A stretch of 64,000 nucleotides of DNA from NCBI GenBank assembly GCA_963674705.1, contig OY771506.1:736001-800000 (forward strand), read 5' to 3'. The translations under genes and the position numbers were made by a program. Numbering within the stretch: the stretch's first letter is position 1; each line of letters opens with the position of its first letter. This document shows, piece by piece, positions 2,958-48,639 of this stretch. Source of the DNA: Phycisphaeraceae bacterium (GTDB lineage Bacteria; Planctomycetota; Phycisphaerae; Phycisphaerales; Phycisphaeraceae). The notes under the pieces were generated by a model that had not been told where the DNA came from, made no database searches, and saw nothing but the letters and a program-made list of their open reading frames with translations.

Positions 2958-4139
2958 TCATTGCGACTGTTGGCTGGATGCCCGGTCCAGCAAGGCTTGC
3001 AGAGCCCCCACATTATCGAGCCGGCCTACAACTGCCGGGGCGCCGGGCACAAAAAGTACGGGCACATAGTCCGCGCCGCTTTCCCCATAAGATAGGACGT
3101 TGCGGCTTATCCGATCTTGCATACGCGGATCGTTATAAGCTTGTTCAAAAGTTTTTTCTCCAAGCCGTCGGATTGCCTCGGCGCGGGCGTTTTTAGCGGT
3201 GCGGGGCTGCACGGGCTCGTACATCCACCGATCAAAATCCGGGTAAGCCCCGGGGTCTGCCAGGAAAAAGGCGACCGCGATCCGGGTCAATTCGCAGCTT
3301 TCCTTGAATCGCTCGTCAATATCGTCCGAGACATGAGGATTGCAGCCGTGATTCAGAGGCATGGGCAGGAGGACGACGGTAAGCCGGCCCGGGTGCTGCT
3401 CTTGATATTCCTCGACGACGCTGTGCGTGTGTCGGCAGTGCAGGCAGGCGTAATCGAGCATCATGACCATGACCTGCTTGCCGTCCGGCGGACCGAGCAG
3501 CGGTTCTTCGCTGAGGTTGAGTGTGAGTTTGCCGTCGAGGACGGTGACGGTGCGGCCAGTGGCGGTTTGTTGATCGCTGCTGTGGGTGTCGAGTGTGATG
3601 AGCATCGAACTTGTGCCCATCTGCACGAGCATCATGGCGAGGACGAGAACGAGACCGAGCACGATCGCGGGGATGCTGCGCAAACGGATGCGCCAGAACA
3701 AAAGAGGCGCGAGTATCAAACCGATCGTGTGATCGGCCATGCAATAGGGGCAGATCGCTCGAAGCGGGATGAGTTGCAGGTAGATAAACCAGATAGCGGA
3801 ACCCGCGATGACGGTGGCGAGCAGTGAGAGCACGAATCTTGCAATGTAATTTGTCTTTTCATTCGCAGAGCGTGAGAAGAACAAGGCGATGATGATGCCG
3901 ATGTAGACGCCCATCGCGAGCAGGCTGACGGGGATGCCCAGACAGTGCGAGAACTTGCTTGATAGGACTTCTGCACATCCGGAACCCGAACCACAACCTG
4001 CGGGGCTCATGCCTTTACTCATCGAGGTGTAGGACAGGTAGGCACTGATGAGTAGCGCGGTAGCCGCCAGACAAATCATGAGGATGAACTCAAAACGAGC
4101 CGGGCCCGGTTTCCGGTAGTCGTCGAAAGGATCATTCAT
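2958..4139 (-). CDS. VKOR (vitamin K epoxide reductase family) fused to a DsbA-like thioredoxin domain
   Basis: VKOR loop cysteines CGSGSGCAEVLSS, TM helices and CPYC; C-terminal DYACLHC CxxC and cis-Pro 'VP' motif. Confidence 0.88.
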   Translation of the reverse strand: MNDPFDDYRKPGPARFEFILMICLAATALLISAYLSYTSMSKGMSPAGCGSGSGCAEVLSSKFSHCLGIPVSLLAMGVYIGIIIALFFSRSANEKTNYIARFVLSLLATVIAGSAIWFIYLQLIPLRAICPYCMADHTIGLILAPLLFWRIRLRSIPAIVLGLVLVLAMMLVQMGTSSMLITLDTHSSDQQTATGRTVTVLDGKLTLNLSEEPLLGPPDGKQVMVMMLDYACLHCRHTHSVVEEYQEQHPGRLTVVLLPMPLNHGCNPHVSDDIDERFKESCELTRIAVAFFLADPGAYPDFDRWMYEPVQPRTAKNARAEAIRRLGEKTFEQAYNDPRMQDRISRNVLSYGESGADYVPVLFVPGAPAVVGRLDNVGALQALLDRASSQQSQ

Positions 4140-4160: not shown

Positions 4161-5261
4161 TTATCGATTGTTGTTCAGCTCGTTGATTTTTTCAGCCAGC
4201 ATGTGTGTGAACACCTCGCGGCCGGCGGGATTCAGGTGCGCGTAATCGGAAAAAGCGTCGTCGGGCATGGCGTCGCGCAGGTCGATGACGAGGATGTTGC
4301 GTCCGACGCTGACTTCATCGATCAACTCGCGGAAGACATCGTTGGATTCGGGCGGCAACCAGCCGCGCAAGCTGGATGACACGGGCAGATTCACAATGAT
4401 GATCTGCTTGGGCCCGAGCGCATCAAGGTCGGCGATGAGGTCGCGGAAGGCGTCGGCGTGGCGTCCGGTGGTTGAATAGCTTTCGGCCTGGAACCAGCCG
4501 AAGCGGGACCAGCCGTTGAACTGGCGTTTGAGGTATTTTTCGGGCCGACGGTCGGGGACGTCCCTGCGTCCCAGCGGGCGCCAGGGGCGGTCTGACGGTT
4601 GGAACAAACCGACCGCGCCGCTGTCGAGTCGTTCATGCAGGGCGAGGCGTGCTTCGAAAAACGCGATGTTGGTGTGGTGGCTGATGTTGCGGCGCTGGTT
4701 GCGGACCCAGTTGTGATCCTTAAGCCAACGGTCCGGCCGCCAACTGTACTCGGAAGGTTCATTCTTTTTCGCTCGATCATCTACCGAGGCTTCCGTTTCG
4801 TCTTCTTCGAGGTCGGCTGCGCCCTGGCCGACAAGCATGGTGGCGTGCAGGCCGAGGATGATGGTGTCGGGTTGGACCTTGCTGGCGGTAAGCGTCTGGG
4901 CGTAGAGCCGGAGCTTGACGAAGCTGCTGCCGAAGCCGTTGATGAGAAGCCAGGGATGACGCGGGACAACTTCTTTTTTCAGCAGCGTCGGGTCGATGCC
5001 TCGGAGGGTGGTGGATTGCCCGAGGACGACGCCGAACGCTTCGGGGCCTTCGTTATGATGATTGCGGGTTTGCAGTTCGACGCCGGCGACGTTTTCGCCG
5101 ATGGTTTGCAACTGGACCCAGGCGATTTTCTTTTCCGGGTCGTTGAACATGGCCGGGTCGCTGCCGAACATGACGTTCAGCAGGATGTTGCAAAAGACGA
5201 ACGCGCACAGCATCCCCCCACTGACGATGAGCAGGCCGTGATATCGTTTGAAGTCAATCAT
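4161..5261 (-). CDS. Membrane-anchored SGNH/DltD-like acyltransferase
   Basis: N-terminal TM anchor, VVLGQST (block I Ser), NGFGSS, C-terminal DYAHLN (DxxH); downstream of an MBOAT gene. Confidence 0.7.
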   Translation of the reverse strand: MIDFKRYHGLLIVSGGMLCAFVFCNILLNVMFGSDPAMFNDPEKKIAWVQLQTIGENVAGVELQTRNHHNEGPEAFGVVLGQSTTLRGIDPTLLKKEVVPRHPWLLINGFGSSFVKLRLYAQTLTASKVQPDTIILGLHATMLVGQGAADLEEDETEASVDDRAKKNEPSEYSWRPDRWLKDHNWVRNQRRNISHHTNIAFFEARLALHERLDSGAVGLFQPSDRPWRPLGRRDVPDRRPEKYLKRQFNGWSRFGWFQAESYSTTGRHADAFRDLIADLDALGPKQIIIVNLPVSSSLRGWLPPESNDVFRELIDEVSVGRNILVIDLRDAMPDDAFSDYAHLNPAGREVFTHMLAEKINELNNNR

Positions 5262-5272
5262 GACCGCGTCGG

Positions 5273-5404
5273 CTAAAAACCCTGATAGAAGAACGTTTCA
5301 CCCGTGCGCGAGAGCCAGTACGCGGCGACGATCATGAGGACGATCTTGATCAGCCGGTATGTCCACTGCCACCAGGTAAGTTTGATGGCTGGGTCATCAC
5401 TCAT
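5273..5404 (-). CDS. 43-aa DltX-like membrane micropeptide
   Basis: MSDDPAIKLTWWQWTYRLIKIVLMIVAAYWLSRTGETFFYQGF*. ATG overlaps the MBOAT TGA (TGATG); one TM helix and a C-terminal FFYQGF motif. Below the ORF-track size cut-off. Confidence 0.85.
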   Translation of the reverse strand: MSDDPAIKLTWWQWTYRLIKIVLMIVAAYWLSRTGETFFYQGF

Positions 5405-6573
5405 CAGAACAACTCCTTCCAGGGGTAGCCGATGATCAGCAAGGAGAACGCGACGTATTCAAAGGTCAGGAACTGAGCGACCAGGCGGTACGTCCACTTC
5501 TGTCGGTAGGCTTTGACGCCCTTGCTGCCCAGTTTTTTTGTCAGCCAGTAGCGGTAGGTATTGGTGATGACCAGGCCCACGGCGTGCATCGCGCCCCAGA
5601 AGAAGAAGGGCCAACTGACGTTGTGCCAGAGCCCGCAGAGCAGAAACGCGACGGTGAAGGCGAAGGTCGCGATGAGCAGCGGGTGTTTGCCGCCGGTCTT
5701 GCGTGCCATGTTCAGTTGCATGGGGATGAACATGTTGCGCCTGATCCACAGGGACAGCGAGATGTGCCAGCGGTCCCAGAAGTCGATCATATTGCGGGCG
5801 ATGTAGGGTTTGTCGAAGTTTTCGGGAGTGTGGATGCCCATGAGTTTGCCGATGCCGACGGCGATGTCGCTGTAGGCGGAGAAGTCGAGGAAGAGCCAGA
5901 TGTAATGCATCTGCACTTCGAAGAGCATGTAAGGACCGGTCACGTAGAAGTCGGTCAGGAATACATGCTGGATCGTGAAGGCGACAACGAACTTCTTGAA
6001 TAGTCCCAATGCGATGCGTTCGATACCTTCCAGCGCCTGGACCGGCGTAAGCGGATCGGGCACGGACGGTTGATCGTAAAAGTCTTCGTAAGACTGGATC
6101 GGCCCGGCGGCGAGCATGTGGAACGGGAGGATGTAGTTGATCGTTGCCACGGGGTTCGGTGAAGGTCGGCCGCCCTGGTAGACGACGCGCCCGACATCGA
6201 AGATACGCAGCATCGCGTACGAATAACCGACCGCCGCCAGGATCGGATTGACCCCGCCCACGCCCAATGCTATCGAGACGTCCGGTCGCTTGTTGAACAC
6301 GAACAACACCAAGGCGATCAGCAAGCCGACGAACATCAACACCAGCCGCCAGGGCTTCGGCTGTGCGAGGATGCGCAAGCCTGACCAGATACATAACACA
6401 CCCGCCAGCACCCACAACACCTGCACGTGCAGTATGAGTGAGATGAACATGATGTTGACCGCGGCGAACACATACTGACGTGCGGTCGCCTTTGTCAGCG
6501 GCGTTAACAGCACGACCGCCAGCAGCATGGTCATCCAGAATTCTTTGGTCGCCAGGTCGATCGTTGGAATCAT
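5404..6573 (-). CDS. MBOAT family O-acyltransferase (DltB/AlgI-like)
   Basis: AGPI, DFSAYSDIAVG, PENFDKPY, FWDRWHISLS and GLWH (catalytic His); multiple TM segments. Confidence 0.93.
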   Translation of the reverse strand: MIPTIDLATKEFWMTMLLAVVLLTPLTKATARQYVFAAVNIMFISLILHVQVLWVLAGVLCIWSGLRILAQPKPWRLVLMFVGLLIALVLFVFNKRPDVSIALGVGGVNPILAAVGYSYAMLRIFDVGRVVYQGGRPSPNPVATINYILPFHMLAAGPIQSYEDFYDQPSVPDPLTPVQALEGIERIALGLFKKFVVAFTIQHVFLTDFYVTGPYMLFEVQMHYIWLFLDFSAYSDIAVGIGKLMGIHTPENFDKPYIARNMIDFWDRWHISLSLWIRRNMFIPMQLNMARKTGGKHPLLIATFAFTVAFLLCGLWHNVSWPFFFWGAMHAVGLVITNTYRYWLTKKLGSKGVKAYRQKWTYRLVAQFLTFEYVAFSLLIIGYPWKELF

Positions 6574-8411
6574 CCGGGGATCGCCTCGGCGGTTTTGATG
6601 TGGGTGACAACGTTCGGCGGGTCGGACAGGTTGAGCGTGTAGACGACTGAGCCGTCCGCGTCCTCGGTTTTCCGCTTAAAGCCGAGTCGGTCGTAGAGGT
6701 CGGCTACGAGCTTGTTCTTCGCGGTAGGGATGAACTCGCCTTCAAGCGTTTTGAATCCGGCTTGCAACGCGCGCTCGAGCAGGATGCTGAACATGAACTG
6801 TTCGGATGTCCTGTTGATGACGCGGCAGCTCATGAGCCAGGTGTCGATACGCAGGGTTTGCTCATCATTCGGCACCGCGATGACGAGGGAGACGAGGCCG
6901 TGATCGCCGAACTTATCGCTTAGCCGAAGCGTCATACCGACCGCGCCTGTTTGGGCGAGCATCGCACGGACATCCTCGGCGGTGTGGCGGCGGGTGGTCA
7001 GGTTGAACTGGTTGGTCTTACCCAGCAGTTGGACGACGCGCTGCATGTCGGTTTCGTCGATGTCGCGCACATCGGCGATCATTTCCAGTGACGCGAGATA
7101 ATCATCGATCGAAGCGAACGACTGTTCGGCATCGCGGCGCTTGCGTTCGACGGCGTATTGCTCAGCCCGCTGACGATCCGCGCCGGAGACTTCGACGGCC
7201 TCGAAGTAGAGCCCCGCTTCCACCGCACGGACGTAACCGGCGGCATCCTCGGGTACTTCGACGACTTCCACTTCGGGCAACACCTGGCGGACGTGTTCGC
7301 GCTCAGCAGGGTTGTCATCAACGAAGACGAAACTATCGAGCCCGAGGCGCAGCGTCTTGGCGATGCGTTCGATGGCCAAGGGTTTGGGGTCCCAGCTTGC
7401 TTCAAACGCGGCGAAGTCGTCGAGCGTGAGGACCATGTCCGGGTGTTTGCCGAACGGTTCACGCGCATCGTCGGGGTTGTTCTTGGAGCAGACGGCCAGG
7501 ACGACGCCGCGCTCGGCTAAACCCTTGGCGTACTTCTGGAAGGAGCGGTAGGCTTCGCCATCCGCGGTTTCACCGACGGAGATGCCGAGTGGGCCGGTCT
7601 CGCCTACTACGCCGCCCCAGAGTGTGTTGTCCAGGTCGAGTACGAGCACCTTCTTCGGGCCGGTCGTCACCGCACGAAGAGCGGCGGCGAGGTGATAGCT
7701 CAGTAACGAAGTGCCTTCTTCGCTGAACGGCTGCTTGGTCCAGTGGTATCGGCGAGCATCGTAAAATTGATCACGGCCCATCTGCCCGGCGACGCGCTGA
7801 AGGTCGACGAAGTACGCGCCTTTGGGCAATGCTTCACGCAGGGCGCGGTCCATCGCACGCATCAGGCCCGTGGGCCCTTCGGGTTCGCCCGAGAGGTTGA
7901 CGCCAAACGGACCCGCATCGATACAGTCGTAACCGACCTGGATGATGCGGGCCTTGAGTTGATTGGCTGCGATCTGCCAGGCTTGTTGCCAAAAGGCTAA
8001 TTCGTCGGCAACGCGATCGGTGGGGCTGCGGTCTGCGCCGCTAAGTAATCGTTGATGCCAGGGGACGAAGACGACGGTGTCGATGCGCTCGCCCGAGGAG
8101 GCGGCGGTCAGCAGTTCCTGCATGACGTTGTCGTATTCGCCGTCGATGACGTAGGCGGACATACCCCGGCCGAGGGCTTGTGCGGCCAGGCCGTTAGCGA
8201 GCCAGGTGGTTGTGCATTGGCCGACCATCAGGACGCGGTGGACGTCGCTATTGTCTTTGAATTGTTTTTCGATGTAGCGGCCGGCCTTGTCGATCTCTTC
8301 GCCGGTGAATCCGCCAAGACGCAGCGCGGCGCGCAGCAGCTCAATGCCCTCATCGGCCTTGCCTGCTTTGCGGAGTTTCACGGCCTGCTTGATCTGGTCG
8401 GCTGGATTCAT
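6570..8411 (-). CDS. FkbH-like HAD-IIIC glyceryl-ACP-forming enzyme with C-terminal GNAT-like domain
   Basis: KVLVLDLDNTLWGGVVGE, CSKNN, FVDDNPAE, KTNQFNLTTRR and LMSCRV (acyl-accepting Cys). Confidence 0.92.
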   Translation of the reverse strand: MNPADQIKQAVKLRKAGKADEGIELLRAALRLGGFTGEEIDKAGRYIEKQFKDNSDVHRVLMVGQCTTTWLANGLAAQALGRGMSAYVIDGEYDNVMQELLTAASSGERIDTVVFVPWHQRLLSGADRSPTDRVADELAFWQQAWQIAANQLKARIIQVGYDCIDAGPFGVNLSGEPEGPTGLMRAMDRALREALPKGAYFVDLQRVAGQMGRDQFYDARRYHWTKQPFSEEGTSLLSYHLAAALRAVTTGPKKVLVLDLDNTLWGGVVGETGPLGISVGETADGEAYRSFQKYAKGLAERGVVLAVCSKNNPDDAREPFGKHPDMVLTLDDFAAFEASWDPKPLAIERIAKTLRLGLDSFVFVDDNPAEREHVRQVLPEVEVVEVPEDAAGYVRAVEAGLYFEAVEVSGADRQRAEQYAVERKRRDAEQSFASIDDYLASLEMIADVRDIDETDMQRVVQLLGKTNQFNLTTRRHTAEDVRAMLAQTGAVGMTLRLSDKFGDHGLVSLVIAVPNDEQTLRIDTWLMSCRVINRTSEQFMFSILLERALQAGFKTLEGEFIPTAKNKLVADLYDRLGFKRKTEDADGSVVYTLNLSDPPNVVTHIKTAEAIPG

Positions 8412-8428: not shown

Positions 8429-9379
8429 TTACTTTTCAGAAGGAACGCAGACGTAGGCCACGTCGATCGACGGGTCCTGCTTGTTCTTGCCGTAGTCGGC
8501 GACGCGGAAAGATTTTTCGGCGACGATGTCGAAGCCCGCCTCTTTGAGCATGTCGTTGACCTGATGGCACTCGGTGAAGAGGTACAGGTGATCGATGGCG
8601 TTGGAGTTCACGACGGTCGTGGCGAACATCGGTGCGCCGGGCTTGAGGCAGCGGCACAGTTCTTTCAATGAGAACAGCGGGTCGGGCACGTGCTCGATGA
8701 TTTCGGCGAAGACGCCCCAACTCAGGGTGTTGTCTTCGTAGGGCCAGCGGACGCGTGCGTCGCCGGAGCCGAGGGTGTAGCGGTCTTTGGCGATACCGGC
8801 TTCAGCGAGCAGCTTGCCGGCGTATTCGATAGAGAATCGGCTGACGTCCAGGCTGTTGGTGCTGGTGCCGGGTTTGGCTTCGAGGATGTTCAGCAGGTAC
8901 AGGCCGTGCCCGAACCCGAACTCGCAGCCGACGCCTGAATCCGGGACGCGGGACAGGAACGCTTCGGTGAAGAAGTGGTGGATATCGAAGTGGATGGGCC
9001 AGTAGGCGTGGGTGAGCATGAGCCCTTCGAGGTAGAACTTACCCATCACGTCAGGGTTGTCGTAGACCTCTTTATAAACATCTTCGAAGTCGCTGTGGCT
9101 GTATTCCTGTGTCTGCATGAAGCGCGCCTGCTCTTTGAGGTAGGCGTAGGTGTATTCGATGAGTGAATCCATCGGCGAGCCGCCCATACGCTGGGCGAGG
9201 TCGACGAGGTGTTCGGCCTGCTGCCAGAAGGCGTCGCCGTGGGTATTGATCTGGTGTTCGGCGTGCGGGGCGAGGAGGTTGCGTGCTTTTTCCAGCAGGT
9301 CCTGTGTGAAGCGGGCGGCGATGGGGTACTTGGCCGCGGCGGATTCGATCGCTGATTGCACGTCGGTTACATGTGTCAT
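8429..9379 (-). CDS. Class I SAM-dependent methyltransferase
   Basis: Motif I CEFGFGHG, acidic SLDVS, EIIEHVPDP..LKPG. Confidence 0.85.
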   Translation of the reverse strand: MTHVTDVQSAIESAAAKYPIAARFTQDLLEKARNLLAPHAEHQINTHGDAFWQQAEHLVDLAQRMGGSPMDSLIEYTYAYLKEQARFMQTQEYSHSDFEDVYKEVYDNPDVMGKFYLEGLMLTHAYWPIHFDIHHFFTEAFLSRVPDSGVGCEFGFGHGLYLLNILEAKPGTSTNSLDVSRFSIEYAGKLLAEAGIAKDRYTLGSGDARVRWPYEDNTLSWGVFAEIIEHVPDPLFSLKELCRCLKPGAPMFATTVVNSNAIDHLYLFTECHQVNDMLKEAGFDIVAEKSFRVADYGKNKQDPSIDVAYVCVPSEK

Positions 9380-9413: not shown

Positions 9414-9806
9414 TCAGGAAACGTTCTGCACCAACTCCACGGTAACACCCCGCGTGTAGATCGGGGAGATGAAGTTGATCAGCAGTGGGCCGGCGTCGAC
9501 GGGTTCGGATTCGAGGAGCTCAACCCCCTGCTCGTTTAACTGTTTGGCTGCCAGCACGATGTCGTCGACTTCAAACGCGACGTGGTGCAGGCCCCCCATC
9601 CCTTTATTGAATTTGGCAAGCACGCCGCCTCGCGGCACGACAAATTCGATCAGACCTCTCGGCCCTTGGGTGAAGATGCATTCCGCCTCATACGCGGGGA
9701 CGAACTGGCGCCGGCCCATCTCCAGGCCGAACAGATCGACCCACATCGTGACCAGCGACTCATCAGGGACGACGATGCCCACGTGATGCAATGCGGGATT
9801 GTTCAC
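9414..9806 (-). CDS. VOC family protein, methylmalonyl-CoA epimerase-like
   Basis: LHHVGIVV, IEFVVP, GLHHVAFEVDDI and C-terminal VELVQ metal-ligand pattern. Confidence 0.82.
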   Translation of the reverse strand: MNNPALHHVGIVVPDESLVTMWVDLFGLEMGRRQFVPAYEAECIFTQGPRGLIEFVVPRGGVLAKFNKGMGGLHHVAFEVDDIVLAAKQLNEQGVELLESEPVDAGPLLINFISPIYTRGVTVELVQNVS

Positions 9807-9850: not shown

Positions 9851-10093
9851 TCAGGCCTTGGCCAGGTGCGCATCCACCAGCGACGCCAGTTCGCCGACGT
9901 CCTTGAGGCTGGCGACTTCAGTCCCGGTGAACCGCACGCCGAAGCGTTTTTCCACCGCCAGGATCAGGTTGACGTGCATCAGCGAGTCCCATTCGTCGAT
10001 GTCTTTGGCGGATGTGGAGCTTTCGATCTCCAGTTCATCATCGTCGAAGACCTCCTGGAAGACCTCGCTTAGCTGTTCTAATGTCTGACTCAC
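9851..10093 (-). CDS. Acyl carrier protein (80 aa)
   Basis: GTG start at 10093; acidic sequence with WDSLMH phosphopantetheine site. The track ORF is over-extended into xth. Confidence 0.9.
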   Translation of the reverse strand: MSQTLEQLSEVFQEVFDDDELEIESSTSAKDIDEWDSLMHVNLILAVEKRFGVRFTGTEVASLKDVGELASLVDAHLAKA

Positions 10094-11274: not shown

Positions 11275-12519
11275 CTACCGTCGTTGTTTCCACGGGGTGT
11301 CCGTCTTGCCGGGGTTGAGGTCTTTGATGAGTTCTTCGGCGAGGGGTTTGGGTTTGTGGTTGTCGTCGCGGTCGAACAGGTGTGAGTAGGCGAAGCCGGA
11401 GAAGCCGTCGGCGTGTAGTTTCTGGGTGATCGCGACCTGTTGGATGATGACGTCGGCCTTGTTGCCGAAGCTCATGCCGGGCACGACCCAACCCTTTTCA
11501 GGTTTTCGGTCGAGCAGCGATTTGCTGCGCTGGGTGAATTGGGCGTTGTCGCCGGTGTAGTTCATCGTGATCGCGGCGTCGAGGTAGCCTTTCTTCATCC
11601 AGGTGACGTAGTCCTGCATCTTGGTCTTGTAGGCATCGTCGGGATCGGCCATGACCGAGGCGCTGATGATGAGGTTGGGCTTGATCTTGCGGACGCGCTC
11701 GCTGATCTTGCGAGTGGTTTCGGTGATCTGCGCGGCCCGCCATTTGATCCAGGCGTCGGGGTCGAGGTCGGGCGCAGCGATGCCGGTCTCTTTGCTGAAA
11801 CGGGCGAGGCTGACGGGGTCGAACGACCAGTTGCCGAGTTTCTTTTCACGGGCTTCGTAGCCTTCGGCGACTTCGTGGATCTCGCGCGGGTATCGGATGT
11901 AGTCGTAGTGCAGGCCGTCGAGGTCGTAGTTTGTAACGAGTTCTTCGCAGAGGTCCGCCAGGTAATCCTGCACCTCGGGGACGCCGGGGCTGATGAAGCT
12001 GTACCAGTCGCGTTTGTTATCGATCTCCTGGTCACGGGGGATCATGCGTTTGCCGGCGGCGTCACACATGAACCAGTCGGGGTGTTCCCACCAGAGTTGG
12101 CCGCTGTCCTTCGGTGGGAACTTCTGCGAACGCCAAGCGGGGAAGACGTTGAAGTAGGCGTGCACCTCGATGCCTCGCTTGTGTGCCTCGGCGATGGCGA
12201 TCTTCAGCGGGTCCCAGCCGGGGTCTTTGCCGGTCGTCTCCGGGCCTTCGCTGGTCAACTCCCAGGCCCAAGGTTCGATCTTGGACGGGTAGAACACCGT
12301 GCCGTTGCCGCGGACCTGGAAGAGGATGACATTGAAGCGCATGGAAGCGCAGTTATTGATGATCTTGCGGACATCCTCGGGTTTCTTGTAGTCCCAGCGT
12401 GTGACCCAGATCGCACGGACCTGTTTGTCGGGCCGGGCGGCTTGTGCGGGGGCGATGGCGAGCAGACTTAATAGTGAAACCAGAGCTGTGACGAGGAATT
12501 TTTGCCAAAGACGGGTCAT
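11275..12519 (-). CDS. Secreted glycoside hydrolase-like family 10 (GHL10, YddW/DigH-like) protein
   Basis: Signal peptide; RAIWV, FQVRGNG, DPL..AIAEAHKRGIEVHAY, YDLDGLHYDYIRYP. Confidence 0.85.
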   Translation of the reverse strand: MTRLWQKFLVTALVSLLSLLAIAPAQAARPDKQVRAIWVTRWDYKKPEDVRKIINNCASMRFNVILFQVRGNGTVFYPSKIEPWAWELTSEGPETTGKDPGWDPLKIAIAEAHKRGIEVHAYFNVFPAWRSQKFPPKDSGQLWWEHPDWFMCDAAGKRMIPRDQEIDNKRDWYSFISPGVPEVQDYLADLCEELVTNYDLDGLHYDYIRYPREIHEVAEGYEAREKKLGNWSFDPVSLARFSKETGIAAPDLDPDAWIKWRAAQITETTRKISERVRKIKPNLIISASVMADPDDAYKTKMQDYVTWMKKGYLDAAITMNYTGDNAQFTQRSKSLLDRKPEKGWVVPGMSFGNKADVIIQQVAITQKLHADGFSGFAYSHLFDRDDNHKPKPLAEELIKDLNPGKTDTPWKQRR

Positions 12520-36082: not shown

Positions 36083-38143
36083 TCAATGGTTCAGCATCAC
36101 CGGTGCTAATGGTTCAACGATACGCAGGTTCTCCGCCATTTCGCTGATCACCTGCGATTCCAGGTCCGACGATATGTTCGGCCCGATGTTCACCGCATCT
36201 TCAGCCTTTTGCACCCAATCGTCGAAGTGGTCCACATCCACCGGCTCGAGGTTTGCCTGCCAGGATTGCGTCCACAAGTCCCACGAGTGGTTGTTGAAGA
36301 CGTATGCCTGCGCGATGGCGGTGTTGTAGGGGTAAGGCTTATCGCCTTGGAAGCGCGTGGGCCAGAACTTGGGACTATTCGACTGCCTTGCTACGCCGAG
36401 GAACGTGAGATACTCCAGACTGGCGCCGTAGTTATTCGGGGGTAATAGCTGATGGTCGATGTCGATCGGCGCGGGCGCATCATCCGCATTCTTGTCAAAA
36501 CCTTCCCAGGGATTGGTTACTTCGATCTGCTCGCCGACGTTGACGCCCACGAGCATGTAGTCGACCTGCCAATACACTTCCTGGGCCACATAGACCCGGG
36601 TACCATCACTACTCGTGCTCAGCTTGGGAGCCAGACCGATGGAAGGATCGCCGCCAAGGTCCGGCCCTTCGGGGTCTGTCTCGTAAACCGCGGACATCCG
36701 CCAGATGTGGTCATCGACTTTCTTCCACGTGGGCCCACTGACAATGCTTGCTGGGTCAACCGAATAAGGAGGGTGCGTAGAAGCATCGGGAACAGCAGAG
36801 CCACCACGGAAATCCACGCGCGGAGAGCGTCGGTAAGGAATGTCGACATAGTCCCAGGTAATCCCCTGCCGCTGCGGCAATCCCGGATCATCCTTGATAC
36901 GGCTCTTGATCTCCACGATGACGTACATCACCTCGGCGATCTCCGTGGAGTCATACTTTCGAGCATATTCGCTGTTGCGATCGGACGACCGTTCGTCATC
37001 GTAGTCGATGTCGATTTCCCACTTGGTGTCTTGAACTGTTCGGCTTGTGAGATCAGACCAGAGGTAACTCGATTTGCATGAGTAGATGTTACCCAAGTGG
37101 TCGCGAAGCCGACTGAATTCCCGCCGCGGTACGGTACGCCAGAGCATCACATGCTCCGGACCAAAGACACGGTATTCCTCGGGCTCCCTTCCCAACCTTG
37201 CTCGTCCCATCTGCGGTGGTAAACGGCTGGTCGTCGGAATACTGCCCGGGTCTTCATCGATCCGGTCCGTGGTGCGCCAACCGAACAGCGCATCCCATGG
37301 CCCGCGGATGGTTTCCTCGTTATCGATCTGTCCGAATCCGATCCCGGTACCATCATAATTCAGCCGTCGATCCGAACCGGGGAGCAGGCCGAACCTCATG
37401 GGCCGTTCGTAATCCGCAAACTTGCCGCGTTGCCAGGGAATGTATGGCGCAGCGGGCAGAAGCAGCCCGGCGGTGGCTTCGCCTTGCTGCCCCAGATTCG
37501 CCTGCACCGATTGGATGGCTGCGGTTTGTGCTGCTTCTGCCAGCGTCGACATCACCGCCTGGCTGTGTGCGTCCATCGAACGCATCGCCTGATGCATCTT
37601 GCCCATATTTCCGGATGGCGCCTGGTAGTGCGTCATTTCGGGGATCAGGTTCGGCTGGTTGCGGAATAGTTCATCCAGCTCGCGCATGTACTGCCGTTCT
37701 GCGATGACGCTGTCAGAATTACTCTCATCGATCATTTCACGCAGCTTGCGTGCGAACCAGACGTCCGTCACCCCCGCGCGGAGCTGACCGCTGACCGCCT
37801 GCGCCAGCGCATCAACATCACCGAGCTCAGACTCGGTCTCGTCGGTGATCGACAGGTCCACCGCCAGAGGCACGCCATCGAGATAACTGACCGCGGCGAT
37901 CAGCCGGGCCGTCTCGACGTTGTTCATCGCGACCGTGTTCATGCTGCGCGCCACCTGGCTGGCGCCGCCGATCGCCGCCGAATCCGCGGCGTGCTGGGTG
38001 ACGACACGGCTTTGCACGCTCGTGCCGACGTTGAAGACGTAGAAGAGCAGCGACGCGATCAGGATGATCGCCAGGAGTGTGATTACCATCACCACGCCCC
38101 CGCTGCGCACGCGAGACGGTGCTAAATTCAGGGCGTTATCCAT
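36083..38143 (-). CDS. TadG-like protein (N-terminal Tad domain) with large unrecognised C-terminal region
   Basis: RSGGVVMVITLLAIILI...VTQHAADSAAIGGA Tad signature. Confidence 0.75.
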   Translation of the reverse strand: MDNALNLAPSRVRSGGVVMVITLLAIILIASLLFYVFNVGTSVQSRVVTQHAADSAAIGGASQVARSMNTVAMNNVETARLIAAVSYLDGVPLAVDLSITDETESELGDVDALAQAVSGQLRAGVTDVWFARKLREMIDESNSDSVIAERQYMRELDELFRNQPNLIPEMTHYQAPSGNMGKMHQAMRSMDAHSQAVMSTLAEAAQTAAIQSVQANLGQQGEATAGLLLPAAPYIPWQRGKFADYERPMRFGLLPGSDRRLNYDGTGIGFGQIDNEETIRGPWDALFGWRTTDRIDEDPGSIPTTSRLPPQMGRARLGREPEEYRVFGPEHVMLWRTVPRREFSRLRDHLGNIYSCKSSYLWSDLTSRTVQDTKWEIDIDYDDERSSDRNSEYARKYDSTEIAEVMYVIVEIKSRIKDDPGLPQRQGITWDYVDIPYRRSPRVDFRGGSAVPDASTHPPYSVDPASIVSGPTWKKVDDHIWRMSAVYETDPEGPDLGGDPSIGLAPKLSTSSDGTRVYVAQEVYWQVDYMLVGVNVGEQIEVTNPWEGFDKNADDAPAPIDIDHQLLPPNNYGASLEYLTFLGVARQSNSPKFWPTRFQGDKPYPYNTAIAQAYVFNNHSWDLWTQSWQANLEPVDVDHFDDWVQKAEDAVNIGPNISSDLESQVISEMAENLRIVEPLAPVMLNH

Positions 38144-40730
38144 CCTCGCCTCCCTCTCTGTCCTTACTTTCGGCCAAACCCTTGGTGACCTGCTCTCGCA
38201 ATGCAGTCAATTCATCGGTAACCCGGATCTTCGCCGCGGTTGACAATATCCCACGCGCGCTTGGCCATTGTTCGTTGGCGATATACCCACGGGCCTGGGC
38301 GAGCAGATGATTGAACTCGGTGTCGTCCAGCCTCTGCTCGATCTCTTCGGTTTTCATCACATCGCGGGCGCTGCGAAACGCCTGCTTGGCCTGGGCGTAT
38401 CGGCCTTGCTCGGCATAGCCGTCGCCCTGCTTGAGAAGCTCGCGGTAACGCACGTGGCGGGCGTGGCGTTCCATCGCTTCGGCGACCGCCGGGCTGTCCG
38501 GCTGCAATTCCTTCGCTTCGTCCAGCACTTCGCCGGCCCGTTCGAGTTGACCTTGTGCTATCAACTGCTCGGCCTGCGCCAATGCCGCCCCGGCCTCAAC
38601 ACGATTCAGCGCCGACTGGACTTGCTCATCAGGCCCGCTCTGTAACGCGGCGCGGTAGTGGCTGGCCGCTTGCAAAAGATCGCCGGAGGCTTCTGCTCGT
38701 TTACCGGCCTCGATATACGAACGCTTTTCGATTGTCACGTTCATGCGCGCAAGCCAACCGCGAGCCTCGGCGTTATTCGGATCAAACGCCAATGCATTGG
38801 TGAACGCCGCCTGGGCCCCCGCTTCATCGCCGGATTCGACCAACGCTCGCCCTTTTGTCATCGCCGCCTTCGACTTGAGTATCTGAATGCGTGACGAAAG
38901 TGAGTCGTCTTCCATGAGCGCAATCGCCTCTTCGAATGACTGGATCGCCTTGTCGTAATCCGCGCTGCGCTCCGCCGATTCACCGCCGGCCACCAGTTCA
39001 CGGAAAGACTTCAGCACCGTCAGCGACTCGATCTTCTCGTCGATGCGCGGATTTTGCAGACGCCGTTTCACGCCGGACAGGTGGTTGATCGCGCCGGACA
39101 CGTTGTTTTGTTCGACCATTTCATCTGCAGTTGCCAACGCCTCATCAACCTGTTCGCGTTCAAGCTCCGCATCGATCCGAACCTGGAAGTCCAGAAGCGC
39201 CTTGGATTCATTTTCCGTCAGTTCGTTGCGCTGTGCTTCCTTGATAACGTTGCGTGCCTGTGCAAATTCCCCGGCTTCAAGATGGGTCTGCACCTCGGCA
39301 ACCGTATTGTCAAACGCCTGGCGTCGATCGACCTCATCGCTTAACGCTTTGACGGCTTCACGGCTGGCGGGGCCCGCCTCGGCCAGCATTTCGAGGTCCG
39401 TGGTCAGGCTGCGCGCTTCGTCGTACCGGTTTTCCGACAGCGCGATCTGCGCCTTGGCAATCAGTGCGCCGACTTTGCCGTGTAAAGCAAGCTCATCCCC
39501 CGGCTCGGGCCAGGCAGTAGCCTGTGCTTCATACAGTGAGATCGCATCCGCGAAGCGCCCGGCCCTGTAGGCGACGTCCGCATCTGCAAGCGATGACGCC
39601 GCGAGCGAACGCTTGTGTTCGTATGCGTTCTTGTTGATCGTGCTGACGGTAAACCACACGCCAAGTGAGAGCACAACCACGACCGCGGCCGCGATCCCGA
39701 TGACCATCGGTTTCTTGCTGGGCTGCGGCAGTTCGGTCGTATCGCCCGGGCCGGTCGCTTTGATTTGTGCGCCGGAAGGTGTGAATGCATCGGGGGAGGC
39801 TTCTGCTTTGACGATGGCGTCCTGCCCGAAGTGGCGCTGGATGGCTTCAAGCAACTGCTCGCCCGATGCGATACGCTTGCTGCGGTCTTTGGCCATCATC
39901 CTGGAAATCAGGTCGCTTAAACGCACGGGTACGCGGGGATTCAGTTCGTGCAGGTGCGGCGCCTGGACGCGCGCGTTGGTGTGCCACTTCATCCAGCGCA
40001 TCGCAGAGTTGCGCTTATCGCCGATCACTGCATTGAATACATGCTCGAACGCACCACGCCCGGCAAGCATCTCGTAGGCGATGATCCCAAGCGCGTAGAT
40101 GTCCGACCGTGCATCCCCCGCCACGCCGTGGAATAATTCCGGCGCCATGTACCGGGCCGCGTCCGGGCTAAGCGCCTCTTGCTCGGCGATCAAACCCGTG
40201 ACACCCGCATCAACGACCTGAACACCGCCGCTCAAGCGCAGCACAATGTTGCTCGGTCGCAAGCCGCCGTGGATCATCCCGAGCTTGTGCAGTTGGCTTA
40301 GCACCTTGGCGGTGCTGTGTACGATCCGCAGGCCGCGCACAAGATCGAACGGGTCGGGCCGGCTGTTCAAAAGCTGTTCGATACTCGCGCCGCCGGCATA
40401 ATCGGACACCAGGAACGCCCCGCGGGGATCGTCGATCAATTCCTTCAAGAGCACGACCCGCCGCCCGGACTCACCGAGTTTGCCCTGCTTGTCGATTTCT
40501 TTCTGGCAACGCTCTAAAAACGAACGCTCACGCGACATCGGCGAACCCGGGATCAACTCGCGCACCATCGCGTCAGCACCCGTTTGCGTATGCTGTGCTC
40601 GCCAGACAACGCACGTCTCAGCCGCACTGAGCAGACTGACGATCTGGTAAGACCCCACGGTATCGCCGACCTTCAGGACCGGTTGCACGTCGGAGGCAGC
40701 ATCTTGTGGTATTTCGTTGGCGTCTGTCAT
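38136..40730 (-). CDS. Membrane Ser/Thr kinase-like protein (probable pseudokinase) with extracytoplasmic TPR repeats
   Basis: YMAPE and SDIYALG retained; HGGLRPSN replaces HRDLKPxN. One TM helix, then TPR-like helical repeats. Confidence 0.85.
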   Translation of the reverse strand: MTDANEIPQDAASDVQPVLKVGDTVGSYQIVSLLSAAETCVVWRAQHTQTGADAMVRELIPGSPMSRERSFLERCQKEIDKQGKLGESGRRVVLLKELIDDPRGAFLVSDYAGGASIEQLLNSRPDPFDLVRGLRIVHSTAKVLSQLHKLGMIHGGLRPSNIVLRLSGGVQVVDAGVTGLIAEQEALSPDAARYMAPELFHGVAGDARSDIYALGIIAYEMLAGRGAFEHVFNAVIGDKRNSAMRWMKWHTNARVQAPHLHELNPRVPVRLSDLISRMMAKDRSKRIASGEQLLEAIQRHFGQDAIVKAEASPDAFTPSGAQIKATGPGDTTELPQPSKKPMVIGIAAAVVVVLSLGVWFTVSTINKNAYEHKRSLAASSLADADVAYRAGRFADAISLYEAQATAWPEPGDELALHGKVGALIAKAQIALSENRYDEARSLTTDLEMLAEAGPASREAVKALSDEVDRRQAFDNTVAEVQTHLEAGEFAQARNVIKEAQRNELTENESKALLDFQVRIDAELEREQVDEALATADEMVEQNNVSGAINHLSGVKRRLQNPRIDEKIESLTVLKSFRELVAGGESAERSADYDKAIQSFEEAIALMEDDSLSSRIQILKSKAAMTKGRALVESGDEAGAQAAFTNALAFDPNNAEARGWLARMNVTIEKRSYIEAGKRAEASGDLLQAASHYRAALQSGPDEQVQSALNRVEAGAALAQAEQLIAQGQLERAGEVLDEAKELQPDSPAVAEAMERHARHVRYRELLKQGDGYAEQGRYAQAKQAFRSARDVMKTEEIEQRLDDTEFNHLLAQARGYIANEQWPSARGILSTAAKIRVTDELTALREQVTKGLAESKDREGGEDG

Positions 40731-41802: not shown

Positions 41803-43455
41803 ATGCAGACAACGTCGTATGAACTGCGGGGGAACGTGGTGGATATCGTCCGCCGAAGGGTTTTTCCCGGGATCGTGGTTATAGAAGATGGCCGGATCAG
41901 CTCGGTCACCGATGATACCGAGGCCGGGCCGCAGACCTGCCAGACCTACCTCATGCCCGGGTTCGTCGATGCCCATATCCACGTCGAGAGTTCGATGCTC
42001 ACGCCCTGCCAGTTCGCCCGCCAGGCGGTGGTCCACGGGACGGTCGCGACGATAAGCGACCCGCACGAGATCGCGAACGTGCTGGGGATCGAAGGTGTAC
42101 GGTTCATGCTGGACGATGCGGCTAATACGCCTTTGAAGATCATGTTCGGCGCGCCGTCGTGCGTGCCGGCGACGGCGTTCGAGTCGGCCGGCGCGACCAT
42201 GGATGCCGCGGCGGTGGCGAAGCTGCTGGACGATCCGCGGATCGGATACTTAAGCGAGGTGATGAACTTCCCGGGCGTGCTGATGGGCGATCGCGAGATG
42301 ATCGCGAAGTTGGACGCCGCGAAACAGCGCGGTAAGCCGATCGACGGCCATGCCCCGGGCTTGCGTGGCGAGCAGGCTGCTGCTTACGTCCGGGCAGGGA
42401 TCAGCACCGATCACGAATGCTATACCAAGGATGAAGCGCTCGACAAACTGGCCGCCGGCGCGTTTATCCAGATCCGAGAAGGCTCAGCAGCTCGCAACTT
42501 CGAGGCGCTGTACACGCTGATCGATGAGTTCCCCGACAAGGTGATGCTTTGCAGTGATGACAAGCATCCCGATGAACTCGTAAACGGCCACATCAACGAG
42601 CTTGCCCGCCGGGCCGTTGCCAAGGGGATGGATCCGATGAACGTGATACGGGCCGGCTGCGCGAATCCGGTGCATCACTATGGTCTGGATGTGGGCTTGC
42701 TACAGCCGGGCGATCCGGCAGACCTGATCGAGGTTGACAGCCTCGAGTCTTTCAATGTGCTGCGTACGTTCATCGATGGCACTTGCGTTGCGGAGCGGGG
42801 TGGGGCTCTACTGCCCGAGCCCGCCGCTATCGAGCCGATCAACCAGTTCAAAGCGGAGCCGGTCAAACCGAGCGACCTGAAACTGAAGAACGGCAGCGGT
42901 AAAGCTCGCGTCATCGGTGCAATGGATGGCCAACTCGTCACCGAATGCCGTATCCTTGATGTTAAACAATCCGCAGACCAGATCATCGCCGATCCTGAAA
43001 AGGATATCCTCAAGATCGCTGTGGTGAACCGCTATTCCAAGTCCGCCCCGGCGGTCGGCCTGATCCAGGGGTTCGGCCTGAAGCGGGGGGCGATCGCGTC
43101 CAGTGTCGCGCATGATTCGCACAACGTCATCGCTGTCGGCACGAACGATCACGACCTTGCCAACGCTATCAACCTCGTCATCGATAACACAGGCGGGCTC
43201 AGCGCGGTCGACGGCTCTGACAAGCAGGTCCTGCCCCTGCCGATCGCCGGACTCATGGCGACGGGGTCGTGCGGTGAAGTCGCCGATGCCTACGCGAAAC
43301 TGGACCGGACCACAAAAGACATGGGCTCGTCCTTGCGTGCACCGTACATGACACTTTCGTTCATGGCGCTACTGGTCATCCCCAGCCTGAAGCTAAGCGA
43401 CAAGGGGCTCTTCGACGGCGAGAACTTCGAATTCACCACGGTGCATGTGGAATAG
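41803..43455 (+). CDS. ade: Adenine deaminase
   Basis: PGFVDAHIHVESS, DPHEIANVLG, EVMNFPGV, DGHAP, TDHEC, REGSAA, SSVAHDSHN. Confidence 0.95.
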   Translation: MQTTSYELRGNVVDIVRRRVFPGIVVIEDGRISSVTDDTEAGPQTCQTYLMPGFVDAHIHVESSMLTPCQFARQAVVHGTVATISDPHEIANVLGIEGVRFMLDDAANTPLKIMFGAPSCVPATAFESAGATMDAAAVAKLLDDPRIGYLSEVMNFPGVLMGDREMIAKLDAAKQRGKPIDGHAPGLRGEQAAAYVRAGISTDHECYTKDEALDKLAAGAFIQIREGSAARNFEALYTLIDEFPDKVMLCSDDKHPDELVNGHINELARRAVAKGMDPMNVIRAGCANPVHHYGLDVGLLQPGDPADLIEVDSLESFNVLRTFIDGTCVAERGGALLPEPAAIEPINQFKAEPVKPSDLKLKNGSGKARVIGAMDGQLVTECRILDVKQSADQIIADPEKDILKIAVVNRYSKSAPAVGLIQGFGLKRGAIASSVAHDSHNVIAVGTNDHDLANAINLVIDNTGGLSAVDGSDKQVLPLPIAGLMATGSCGEVADAYAKLDRTTKDMGSSLRAPYMTLSFMALLVIPSLKLSDKGLFDGENFEFTTVHVE

Positions 43456-43569
43456 CACATGAATGCCTAATGTACAGGCACAAACTTCCACAATTGATCC
43501 ATGGGTTTTTATGGGTCCGGGGCTATAATGCGGGATCAGGCCCAATGTATCCGAAACAATAGATCAGAC

Positions 43570-45045
43570 ATGCTCAAATCCGCTTCCACATCACGCGACC
43601 ACCTGGTGCTGTTTATCAACGGCGAGCGCCATGATGTAGCCGGTGGGGATGCTTTCGCGACGCTATCTGATTACCTGCGTATTCAATCCGGTATGGTCGG
43701 TACGAAGATCGTCTGTTCGGAAGGCGACTGCGGCGCGTGCAGTGTGTTGGTCGGCAAAGTGGATCAAGCAACCGGCCGATTGACGTATCGCGTGATCGAT
43801 TCGTGCATCCAGTTCATGTACCAGCTCGACCGCACGCATATCGTCACCGTCGAAGGGCTCAAACGCAACGGCCTGCTCAGCCCGATCCAGGACGCGATGG
43901 TCAAACATCACGGCTCGCAGTGCGGCTTCTGCACGCCGGGCTTCGTCACGACGATGACGGGCCTGCTTGAAGGTGATGGGCACGACAGGCAATCGCCGCT
44001 ATCACGCGAGGAGTTATCGCACGGCCTATCCGGGAACCTTTGTCGATGCACCGGGTATCTGCAGATCCTCGATGCGGGTTGTGCTGTTGATCCGGGCAAA
44101 ACTGCGCGGCTGTGTGAACTGTATCCCGATGAGCCTATCGCCGAACATTTCGCGGAGCTTGATCAGGATGATGTCCTGGTCCGTGATGCCGAGCGTGTGG
44201 TGGCTATTCCGTCCAGTCTCGACGTTGCGGTTGCTTTCAAAGCTGATCGCCCCCAATGCACGGTCGTGGCCGGTGCTACCGATATCGGCGTACAACACAA
44301 CAAGGGCAAGATCGCTCCGAGCGAAGTGCTTTGCCTGGCGAATGTCGGCGAGATTCAATCGATCGAACGCAACGATGGCCGGCTGACTATCGGAGCGGGG
44401 GCCACATGGTCGCAGATTGAGCGGGAAGTTAAGGAGCTTGTTCCGCCGTTTCATGACATCCTTACGGTGTTCGGCTCGCCACAGATCCGCAATAGCGGGA
44501 CGATCGGCGGTAATATCGCCAACGCCAGCCCGATCGCGGATTCCTTGCCGTTCCTGTTCGTGACTGAAGCCGAATTAGAACTTGTCGGCCCGGCCGGTTC
44601 GCGTCGCGTGAATATCAATGATTTTTATTTGGGGTACAAAAAGTTCGACCTTAAAGCGGACGAACTGATCGCGCGTGTGCATGTTCCGTTGCCAGCCGAT
44701 TCACAAACGCTGAAGCTCTACAAGGTATCTCGACGACGTGACCTGGATATCTCCACGTTTACCGCCGCGATATTGATGGAACAGGACGACTCGACCGCCG
44801 TTATCAAGACTATCCGCATCGCGATGGGCGGCGTAGCACCGGTTGTGCTGCGATTGCCGAAGACAGAAGCGTTTTTGGCCGGCAAACCACCGGCAGAAGA
44901 AGTCTTCCAAGAAGCAGGCCGGCTCGCCCGCACGGAGGTTACCCCAATCTCCGATGTGCGCGGCAGCGCCGACTTCCGCCTGCAATTAGCGGAAAACATC
45001 CTGAGCAAGTTCTATTACGATTGTGTTCAACCGGTAACGAAATAA
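43570..45045 (+). CDS. xdhA: Xanthine dehydrogenase small subunit (2Fe-2S plus FAD)
   Basis: GTKIVCSEGDCGAC, SQCGFCTPGF, GNLCRCTGY, SPQIRNSGTIGGN, YKVSRRRDLDIS. Confidence 0.93.
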   Translation: MLKSASTSRDHLVLFINGERHDVAGGDAFATLSDYLRIQSGMVGTKIVCSEGDCGACSVLVGKVDQATGRLTYRVIDSCIQFMYQLDRTHIVTVEGLKRNGLLSPIQDAMVKHHGSQCGFCTPGFVTTMTGLLEGDGHDRQSPLSREELSHGLSGNLCRCTGYLQILDAGCAVDPGKTARLCELYPDEPIAEHFAELDQDDVLVRDAERVVAIPSSLDVAVAFKADRPQCTVVAGATDIGVQHNKGKIAPSEVLCLANVGEIQSIERNDGRLTIGAGATWSQIEREVKELVPPFHDILTVFGSPQIRNSGTIGGNIANASPIADSLPFLFVTEAELELVGPAGSRRVNINDFYLGYKKFDLKADELIARVHVPLPADSQTLKLYKVSRRRDLDISTFTAAILMEQDDSTAVIKTIRIAMGGVAPVVLRLPKTEAFLAGKPPAEEVFQEAGRLARTEVTPISDVRGSADFRLQLAENILSKFYYDCVQPVTK

Positions 45046-45066
45046 GGACAAACGTTCAGAAGCATC

Positions 45067-47400: not shown

Positions 47401-47425
47401 ATCTTCCAGAATATAGATTATGTTC

Positions 47426-47556
47426 CTCCCTTCTCCCCCCGGGAGACCCCGGAATAGGCAAGGATGAGGGCCGGGTTCATTTTGTAACCCGATTCAACAC
47501 CGGCCACGCAAACACATTCGGCCCTCACCCCGGCCCTCTCCCGAGGGGAGAGGGAG
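47426..47556. repeat. Inverted doublet of family A REP-like units (REPIN-like)
   Basis: Degenerate reverse copy at 47426-47472 and intact forward copy at 47520-47556, between xdhB and xdhC. Confidence 0.75.
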
Positions 47557-47607
47557 TAAACCGCCGTATTCACATACTCGTCAATAAACAACTAAAATAC
47601 CCGCATC

Positions 47608-48405
47608 ATGCAAACCACAGAACATATGCAGCGTTACATGGAACTCGCTTCGGCCGGGACGCCGTTTGTCAGCGTCACGATGGTTCAAGCCATTGGCAGC
47701 ACGCCACAGGACGCGGGCAGCAAGATGCTTGTCACAGCCGACGGCCTGTTTCACGGCACGGTCGGCGGCGGACAGGTCGAAGCCAAGGCCATCGAACACG
47801 CGCAAGCGATGCTCGAAAATAAAACCGGCACGCAAGGCCACACCGATCTCGTCGAATGGAACCTGAAAAAAGACGTCGGCATGACCTGCGGCGGCACGGT
47901 CACGCTTTACTTCGAGTCGGTCAATCACAACGTCTGGCCGATCGTCATCTTCGGCGCGGGCCACGTCACCCAGGCGCTGGTCAACCTGTTAACCACACTG
48001 CCCTGCCGAGTCACCTGCATCGACCCGCGCGGAGACTGGCTCGACAAACTGCCCAAGGCGGCCAACATCCAGACAATCCGGACAGACGATCCACCCGCGC
48101 AGGTCGCAACGCTACCCGACGGCGCATTTGTCATCAGCATGACGCGTGGCCATGTCACTGACCTGCCTGTTTTGATCGAAGCCTTCAAGCAAAAACGCAA
48201 GTTCCCCTTCCTCGGCGTGATCGGCAGCAAGTCCAAGGCCGCGATCTTAAGACGCGAACTCACCGAGGCCGGCATCCCCGAAGATCAACAGACGTTCCAA
48301 TGCCCGCTCGGTCTGCCAATCGGCACGAATCATCCCGGTGAAATCGCGATCAGTATCGCGGCGCAGTTGCTGGAAGTGAGAGATAGATTGGCCGCAAAGA
48401 AGTGA
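47608..48405 (+). CDS. xdhC: Xanthine dehydrogenase accessory protein
   Basis: GSTPQDAGSKM, GTVGGG, GMTCGG, FGAGHV, GVIGSKSK, CPLG..PGEIAISIAAQLL. Confidence 0.93.
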   Translation: MQTTEHMQRYMELASAGTPFVSVTMVQAIGSTPQDAGSKMLVTADGLFHGTVGGGQVEAKAIEHAQAMLENKTGTQGHTDLVEWNLKKDVGMTCGGTVTLYFESVNHNVWPIVIFGAGHVTQALVNLLTTLPCRVTCIDPRGDWLDKLPKAANIQTIRTDDPPAQVATLPDGAFVISMTRGHVTDLPVLIEAFKQKRKFPFLGVIGSKSKAAILRRELTEAGIPEDQQTFQCPLGLPIGTNHPGEIAISIAAQLLEVRDRLAAKK

Positions 48406-48411
48406 TTTTTA

Positions 48412-48635
48412 GCCGCGAATAAACGCTAATAGACGCGAATCAAGAAACTGAATCTGCTCCGGTCCCCTCTCCCCCCGGGAGAGGGCTAGGGTGAGGGCCC
48501 GTATCTGCTTAATCATCAGAACTTCAAATAGCACAACAGGCACCAGCCACGAACCACAACAAAAAACCCGACCAAAATGGTCGGGCTATATAGAATCACT
48601 CTTCTCATTCGCGTCTATTAGCGTTCATTTGCGGC
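48412..48635. repeat. 29-bp inverted repeat with 10-nt periodicity enclosing a family A unit and a hairpin
   Basis: GCCGCGAATAAACGCTAATAGACGCGAAT (48412-48440) versus 48607-48635 (27/29 match); family A copy at 48464-48499; CCCGACCA/TGGTCGGG hairpin at about 48567-48585. Confidence 0.8.
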
Positions 48636-48639
48636 ATAA

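Follow-up and report, generated by a model that had tools for sequence, protein, structure and literature searches.

A free 43-residue peptide, encoded between a short MBOAT acyltransferase and an SGNH-fold protein in a Phycisphaeraceae bacterium, terminates in the hexapeptide FFYQGF and, judged by conservation and by analogy with known systems, very probably serves as an acyl shuttle between both neighbors through its Tyr40. The explanation that best accounts for the locus as a whole, held with good though somewhat lower confidence, is a relay fed by an FkbH-type protein and an acyl carrier protein (ACP), in which the acyl group would pass from the MBOAT to Tyr40 of the peptide, then to Ser83 of the SGNH protein, and from there to an envelope polymer. 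The assignment of the cargo is less certain than that of the shuttle role.

The analyzed DNA (GCA_963674705.1, contig OY771506.1, 736,001-800,000) is a stretch of 64,000 nt, here referred to as the window, and coordinates are positions within it unless a contig or locus is named. Genes on the minus strand follow the order ACP, VOC, methyltransferase, FkbH, MBOAT, peptide, and SGNH, with these features:

9851..10093, minus strand: stand-alone acyl carrier protein, 80 aa, with a DSL motif and Ser37 (PF00550 on the containing ORF; translation)
9414..9806, minus strand: VOC/glyoxalase-family protein, 130 aa, methylmalonyl-CoA-epimerase-like, accessory (PF13669; TIGR03081 under its cut-off)
8429..9379, minus strand: SAM-dependent methyltransferase, 316 aa (PF08241, PF13489, PF13649)
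6570..8411, minus strand: FkbH-type HAD-IIIC protein, 613 aa, predicted glyceryl-ACP loader (TIGR01686, PF21211, DLDNT at residue 259)
5404..6573, minus strand: short DltB-like MBOAT acyltransferase, 389 aa, His317 in GLWH, no fused motif (PF03062)
5413..5420, minus strand: Shine-Dalgarno-like GGAAGGAG, within the last MBOAT codons, 8 nt 5' of the peptide ATG (sequence)
5273..5404, minus strand: 43-aa single-helix microprotein with C-terminal FFYQGF, predicted acyl shuttle (Tyr40 codon 5287-5285; translation, conservation, pN/pS 0.28)
5276..5293, minus strand: codons of the terminal hexapeptide F38-F-Y40-Q-G-F43 (F38, Y40, and F43 the same in all 33 aligned peptides)
4161..5261, minus strand: SGNH-fold protein, 366 aa, hydrophobic helix at the N-terminus, putative DltD-like transferase (S83, G111, D339, H342; weak PF13472 match, conservation, model)

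The FkbH and MBOAT genes overlap by 4 nt, and 11 nt separate the stop codon of the peptide gene from the SGNH ORF. A promoter scan was uninformative, with 2 sites against 2.8 expected, while terminator-like sites amounted to 14 against 8.1 expected.

Minus-strand translation of the peptide gene reads MSDDPAIKLTWWQWTYRLIKIVLMIVAAYWLSRTGETFFYQGF followed by a stop codon, that is, 43 residues with Tyr as residue 40, bearing out the C-terminal FFYQGF proposed by an earlier sequence-only reading of this DNA. Two further observations of that reading, translational coupling through TGATG and an MBOAT devoid of the motif, were equally confirmed, the peptide ATG (5404-5402) and the MBOAT TGA (5406-5404) sharing base 5404 and the 389-aa MBOAT product terminating in GYPWKELF. 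Its description of the ORF as unannotated holds in that no name has been given to it, but the exact 43-aa product had already been called in a public collection (NCBI, ENA sources). All 10 family members looked up in public gene collections were present there, with "hypothetical protein" as their only name.

The gene carries its own ribosome-binding site, GGAAGGAG, 8 nt before the ATG. Across the whole genome in six frames F-x-Y-x-x-F precedes 8 of 331,522 stop codons, the chance of finding motif plus stop being ~0.0007 per kb per strand, or ~2e-4 per 0.3-kb window. When the last 32 codons of 10 sequences were compared, pairwise differences at codon positions 1, 2, and 3 numbered 318, 194, and 646, respectively, with a pN/pS of 0.28; the motif codons showed only synonymous changes across 10 genus-level sequences, and the N-terminal part of the peptide is free to vary. 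Considering (i) the ribosome-binding site, (ii) the translational coupling, (iii) the codon-position pattern, and (iv) the pN/pS value, the 43-aa ORF is a real gene.

A single hydrophobic stretch is found in the peptide at residues 18-34, with a modest best 17-residue Kyte-Doolittle mean of 1.57 (K20 and R33 lie within it) versus a mean hydropathy of 1.99 across peptides; lengths in the family range from 35 to 61 aa. Lys and Arg are more common before than after this helix in 24 of 33 peptides, equal in 4, and reversed in 5, a bias consistent with a C-terminus that may face out. Comparison of the peptide with Pfam, NCBIfam, and PDB produced sub-threshold matches only, and a Hemopexin match (E 0.043) was rejected as due to chance.

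Conservation of the arrangement was then explored at two distances. MBOATs of at least 63% identity occur in 9 of 41 related genomes, this one included, and all nine are followed by a downstream ORF terminating in FFYQGF. For the wider clade, unique MBOATs with a closed end were pooled, 50 non-fused ones reaching at least 200 bits to the MBOAT profile, and the motif was relaxed at its first position to [FYLIVM]-x-Y-x-x-F. A requirement of at least 300 nt of downstream flank kept 46 of the 50 non-fused and 27 of the 30 unique fused MBOATs. A motif-ending ORF was present in the locus of all 46 non-fused MBOATs, within 300 nt downstream in 43 of them, while none of the 27 fused MBOATs had one within 300 nt downstream. 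Among the four non-fused MBOATs dropped for their flanks the ORF was still seen in one, the other three having only 40-134 nt. Since kin are not independent, no statistical test is attached to these distribution counts. Both the ORF and its terminal motif are thus kept beside orthologous MBOATs, in 9/9 cases within the genus and 46/46 in the wider clade, where the sequence-only reading had placed its refutation; its suggestion that an MBOAT without the motif would need a separately encoded relay peptide is likewise supported by the contrast between 46/46 and 0/27. The peptide gene, therefore, co-occurs strictly with MBOATs lacking the motif in the related clade.

A motif-ending ORF was present in all 12 held-out loci fetched after the peptide alignment had been built, directly downstream in 11 and at 1.2 kb in one, with the strict F-x-Y-x-x-F in 8 of the 12. 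Of 527 candidates, the 33-peptide profile picked out 88 proteins, 35-61 aa long; Tyr occupies position -4 in 88/88 and is never replaced by Phe, and 87/88 end in F-x-Y-x-x-F. An invariant Tyr that is never Phe fits a need for its hydroxyl group, as far as alignments can indicate. In the reciprocal direction, the peptide profile matched 3 of 301 genomes of the phylum of locus L027, all three matches being inside the cassette and two of them not having contributed to the profile. Among more distant short MBOATs (<200 bits), the pattern is looser: a motif ORF often lies 1.3-1.4 kb downstream, beyond a second gene, but four with ample flanks (L059, L061, L076, and L088) showed no motif ORF.

By record names, the cassette is met again, often in rearranged form, in at least three phyla (Planctomycetota, Acidobacteriota, and Myxococcota), all of them diderm. 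Its close relatives belong to Phycisphaeraceae and Phycisphaerales, and the more distant ones include an Acidobacteria MAG and a Polyangiaceae MAG. Distribution is patchy: MBOAT matches at E <=1e-60 were obtained in 3 of 401 genomes of the phylum and 6 of 301 of the class, as well as in 3 of 301 genomes around that of locus L026 and 6 of 301 around that of L027, counts that include the center genome and may be too low because 4-6 candidates were scored per genome. A contig scan run with a single protein query, not a profile, gave 8 loci.

Two families of trans-membrane acylation systems provide the frame for these observations. According to the excerpted text of PMC12148441, DltB passes D-Ala from DltC to the Tyr of the FXYXXF motif of DltX and onward to the Ser of DltD, and the Tyr of the same motif becomes acetylated in PatA, so that motif and Tyr relay are for both proteins as the sequence-only reading had described them. 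The cassette resembles the Dlt system (DltX/DltB/DltC/DltD) in its ~45-aa single-helix microprotein terminating in F-x-Y-x-x-F, its short motif-less MBOAT (DltB fold at TM 0.80, with the His aligned), its carrier-protein donor, and its SGNH partner best matched to DltD. It differs in its loader, which is FkbH accompanied by a methyltransferase and sometimes VOC, with no DltA, in the peptide gene usually following the MBOAT gene while dltX precedes dltA, and in the MBOAT belonging to a separate branch. With PatA/PatB, AlgI/AlgJ, WssH, and CcsH the cassette shares the hexapeptide, the MBOAT plus SGNH logic, and Gram-negative hosts (PMC12148441 and bioRxiv 10.1101/2024.09.17.613324, both as excerpted). 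In those pairs, on the contrary, a longer MBOAT (mostly 460-530 aa among the fetched loci) carries the motif fused to it and the donor is acyl-CoA, whereas the cassette carries the motif on a separate gene and has an ACP.

At the profile level, hhalign of the peptides against three DltX-type sequences gave 92% with the motif and 1.8% without the last six residues, and against fused MBOAT tails it gave 0.7% without those residues. The likeness of the peptide to DltX is, in its sequence, limited to the motif, and because it vanishes without it, it is not counted as homology. The label DltX-like suits a shuttle in a different pathway, not a member of the DltX family: the motif, the free microprotein, and the motif-less MBOAT speak for it, but the likeness stops at the motif, PF12459 does not match, and the donor side is FkbH plus ACP. 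By analogy, the peptide likely acts as DltX does but stands outside the Dlt system.

The partners were inspected along the same lines. DltB is the only sequence relative of the MBOAT in PDB. His317 is invariant in 45 sequences and aligns with H336 of DltB chain 6bug_C, which we take to be the catalytic His of DltB, and the MBOAT model (pLDDT 93.8) superimposes on DltB with a TM of 0.80. Thus, the predicted structure presents the MBOAT as DltB-like in fold and His. For the SGNH protein, S83, G111, and H342 are found in 23/23 homologues and D339 in at least 90%, a pattern resembling the Ser74, Gly104, Asp373, and His376 reported for L. plantarum DltD (PMC13653941, as excerpted). An N-terminal helix is present in its model (pLDDT 88.8), for which the three best fold matches are all DltD, although weak (E 1.5e-4, TM 0.38); a PDB sequence search with the SGNH profile reached CgnD only, at E 0.11.

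A quick, midpoint-rooted tree of 97 rows, from which duplicates, open-ended MBOATs, and MBOATs of <330 aa were excluded, places the MBOAT in a 33-row branch (SH-aLRT 99; peptide present in 30 rows, 3 rows truncated) distinct from the annotated DltB rows. In the same quick tree the 29 fused MBOAT rows fall together on one side of a branch (98). The strict motif rule used for the tree missed the peptide of L080 and detected no peptide in L116, an annotated dlt operon.

Regarding the donor side, the FkbH protein scores 294.6 bits against TIGR01686, over the cut-off of 146.65, its HAD DxDxT motif reads DLDNT at residue 259, and an ACP lies in the operon. FkbH enzymes are described as transferring glycerate from 1,3-bisphosphoglycerate onto an ACP (PMC7489565, excerpt), and O-methylglycerate as arising from methyltransferase, FkbH, and carrier in cyanobacterial modules (PMC10143770, excerpt). 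The cassette resembles the FkbH/ACP modules of polyketide and NRPS clusters (tetronates; suomilide/varlaxin) in combining FkbH, a stand-alone ACP, and a methyltransferase, but, unlike them, its operon has no PKS, NRPS, or FabH genes and is coupled to a trans-membrane acyl-relay triad. On sequence grounds, the likely cargo is an FkbH-made (methyl)glyceryl-ACP, and a cargo of glyceryl type is moderately favored. FkbH was found in 37 of 50 loci, a related methyltransferase in 15 of 50, and VOC in 4 of 50, many of these loci having short flanks. Across the clade, however, the cargo is not constant, because locus L041 has an ACP and no FkbH match over 6 kb on each side, and because in two loci (L091:4951-7389 and L107:1917-7271) AMP-binding enzymes take the place of FkbH beside a split MBOAT and its microprotein. 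In L091 this peptide is possibly ~79 aa long, with two hydrophobic stretches. Within the genus the methyltransferase itself is exchanged, the type at 8429-9379 accompanied by VOC being replaced in most relatives (L022-L025, L028) by a ~29%-identical type without VOC, which suggests two versions of cargo tailoring.

The relay would then run in three steps. Judging from its family, FkbH would charge the ACP with glycerate taken from 1,3-bisphosphoglycerate, and this glycerate may be O-methylated by the methyltransferase. By correspondence with DltB, the MBOAT would use His317 to transfer the acyl group, bound to the ACP as a thioester, to Tyr40 at the outer face of the inner membrane. As in DltD and PatB, Ser83 of the SGNH protein would finally take the acyl group and esterify an envelope polymer.

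Other readings of the peptide itself were weighed against the shuttle. Were the ORF just the tail of a fused AlgI/PatA-type MBOAT, made by frameshifting at TGATG or split off by an assembly error, the one-base overlap at the junction and the same motif at the end of fused MBOATs would be expected. Nonetheless, the MBOAT-peptide spacing varies among homologues between -10 and +133 nt, the peptide gene has its own ribosome-binding site, none of 120 MBOAT homologues terminates in the motif, and public contigs of two studies (X1 and X4, X1 possibly being the source of this genome) cover the whole junction without an indel. Fused forms, moreover, carry the motif on two extra helices, not one (PMC12148441, excerpt). 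In L039 the ORF comes ahead of the MBOAT gene, and in L027 it is encoded on the opposite strand and precedes the SGNH gene, so that a frameshift fusion is ruled out as a general explanation, and for this locus we regard it as scarcely credible. Hardly more credit is given to a horizontally acquired Dlt D-alanylation system with the peptide as DltX itself, even though NCBIfam and PDB both give DltB as the best match of the MBOAT, the best SGNH fold match is DltD, and an ESM Atlas cluster of which 68% are PF12459 members ranks 9th (score 0.87, a lead only), behind top clusters that are unnamed. PF12459 (DltX) gave no match in the genome or in any of the 33 peptides, although the control matched in B. 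subtilis and L. lactis; the four genome matches to TIGR01734 (DltA) are all under the cut-off and away from the locus, and the cassette has no adenylation enzyme. In addition, the MBOAT scores 179.6 bits against TIGR04091 (LTA_dltB), under the cut-off of 375, and sits in its separate 33-row branch (SH-aLRT 99), and the SGNH protein has no PF04914 match.

That the peptide is a structural subunit, bridging MBOAT and SGNH protein or plugging an active site with its Tyr never acylated, appears improbable, if less so than both preceding readings. DltX does bind DltB and DltD (PMC12148441, excerpt), binding of DltD and DltE is reported for its C-terminal peptide (PMC13653941, excerpt), and conservation alone cannot tell binding from catalysis; on the other side stand the Tyr invariant at -4 in 88/88 proteins, never Phe, and the acylation of the same motif in PatA (PMC12148441, excerpt). 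A greater, still minor, share of probability goes to a shuttle that is right but whose cargo or product differs, either through another FkbH/ACP feed or through a lipid or small-molecule acceptor instead of a surface glycan. The loader varying at the edge of the clade (L041, L091, L107), an operon here without glycosyltransferase or polymer-synthesis genes, and the co-occurrence of FkbH, methyltransferase, and MBOAT in cyanobacterial peptide natural-product clusters (PMC10143770, excerpt) all agree with it. Against it, FkbH directly adjoins the MBOAT, with the 4-nt overlap, and is present in 37/50 loci, the SGNH partner is modeled with an N-terminal membrane helix and a DltD-like fold, and GT2, O-antigen-ligase, or GT1 genes adjoin L027 and L041. 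The FkbH/ACP-fed relay ending on an envelope polymer thus remains the preferred reading.

The relay chemistry itself is already known. Other MBOAT/SGNH pathways outside Dlt are described as having neither carrier protein nor DltX-like microprotein (PMC12148441, 2025, and preprint, as excerpted); contrary to this stated pattern, the cassette has both, with a different loader. The excerpted text of a 2026 review (PMC13721041) mentions DltX once and FkbH not at all, and no description of an FkbH-MBOAT-microprotein system was found in the literature covered, supplements and Schultz et al. 2023 (Nat Microbiol), which may list such genes, being outside that coverage. If the proposed function is true, the acyl-shuttle mechanism would be extended to a new cargo, pointing to an undescribed glycerate-type envelope modification. 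As an annotation rule, a short MBOAT of this clade signals a tiny partner gene nearby. On a broader view, to which we grant slightly less than an even chance, the cassette may represent a third architecture of bacterial trans-membrane acylation, going from FkbH-made (O-methyl)glyceryl-ACP through a free Tyr-shuttle microprotein to an SGNH transferase that decorates the diderm envelope; Dlt would then be one branch of a broad, mostly unnamed split MBOAT-microprotein set, and the fused PatA/AlgI type maybe a single derived fusion.

Several related arrangements were recorded alongside. A second MBOAT in the same genome, outside the window (C1:2238582-2240192, plus strand), is of the long fused type and terminates in FIYFQF, so this genome has both split and fused architectures. 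A separate branch of ~400-aa MBOATs (L053-L058, L064, L067, L072, L073, L078, L079, L084, and L103) is accompanied by a microprotein terminating in PFIYxxF, usually ~1.3-1.4 kb downstream after a ~400-aa gene and, in L064, directly after the MBOAT. The intervening gene has no Pfam match in the three cases scanned, and no match to the FkbH or ACP of the window is found near these loci; this branch is a second non-Dlt split system. Two metagenome contigs (L066:2738-6951 and L071:2738-6993) contain complete dlt-like operons in a rearranged order, namely carrier, DltD, DltX-like peptide, AMP-binding enzyme, and MBOAT, with peptides terminating in FVYQGF or FIYQGF, and group with annotated DltB. 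In a stretch of a Ligilactobacillus murinus plasmid (L117:2459-3867), dltB is the sole dlt gene and adjoins a gene annotated as a bactofencin-family bacteriocin.

Within the window, a VKOR-DsbA fusion gene (2958-4139, minus strand) directly follows the SGNH gene, apparently also in several genus relatives, and is probably local synteny and not part of the cassette. Ordinary neighbors are a GHL10 glycosyl-hydrolase-like gene upstream of the cassette (11275-12519, minus strand), a Ser/Thr kinase with TPR repeats (38136-40730, minus strand), and a purine-catabolism block at 41803-49896 comprising adenine deaminase, xanthine dehydrogenase-like genes, XdhC, and an amidohydrolase.
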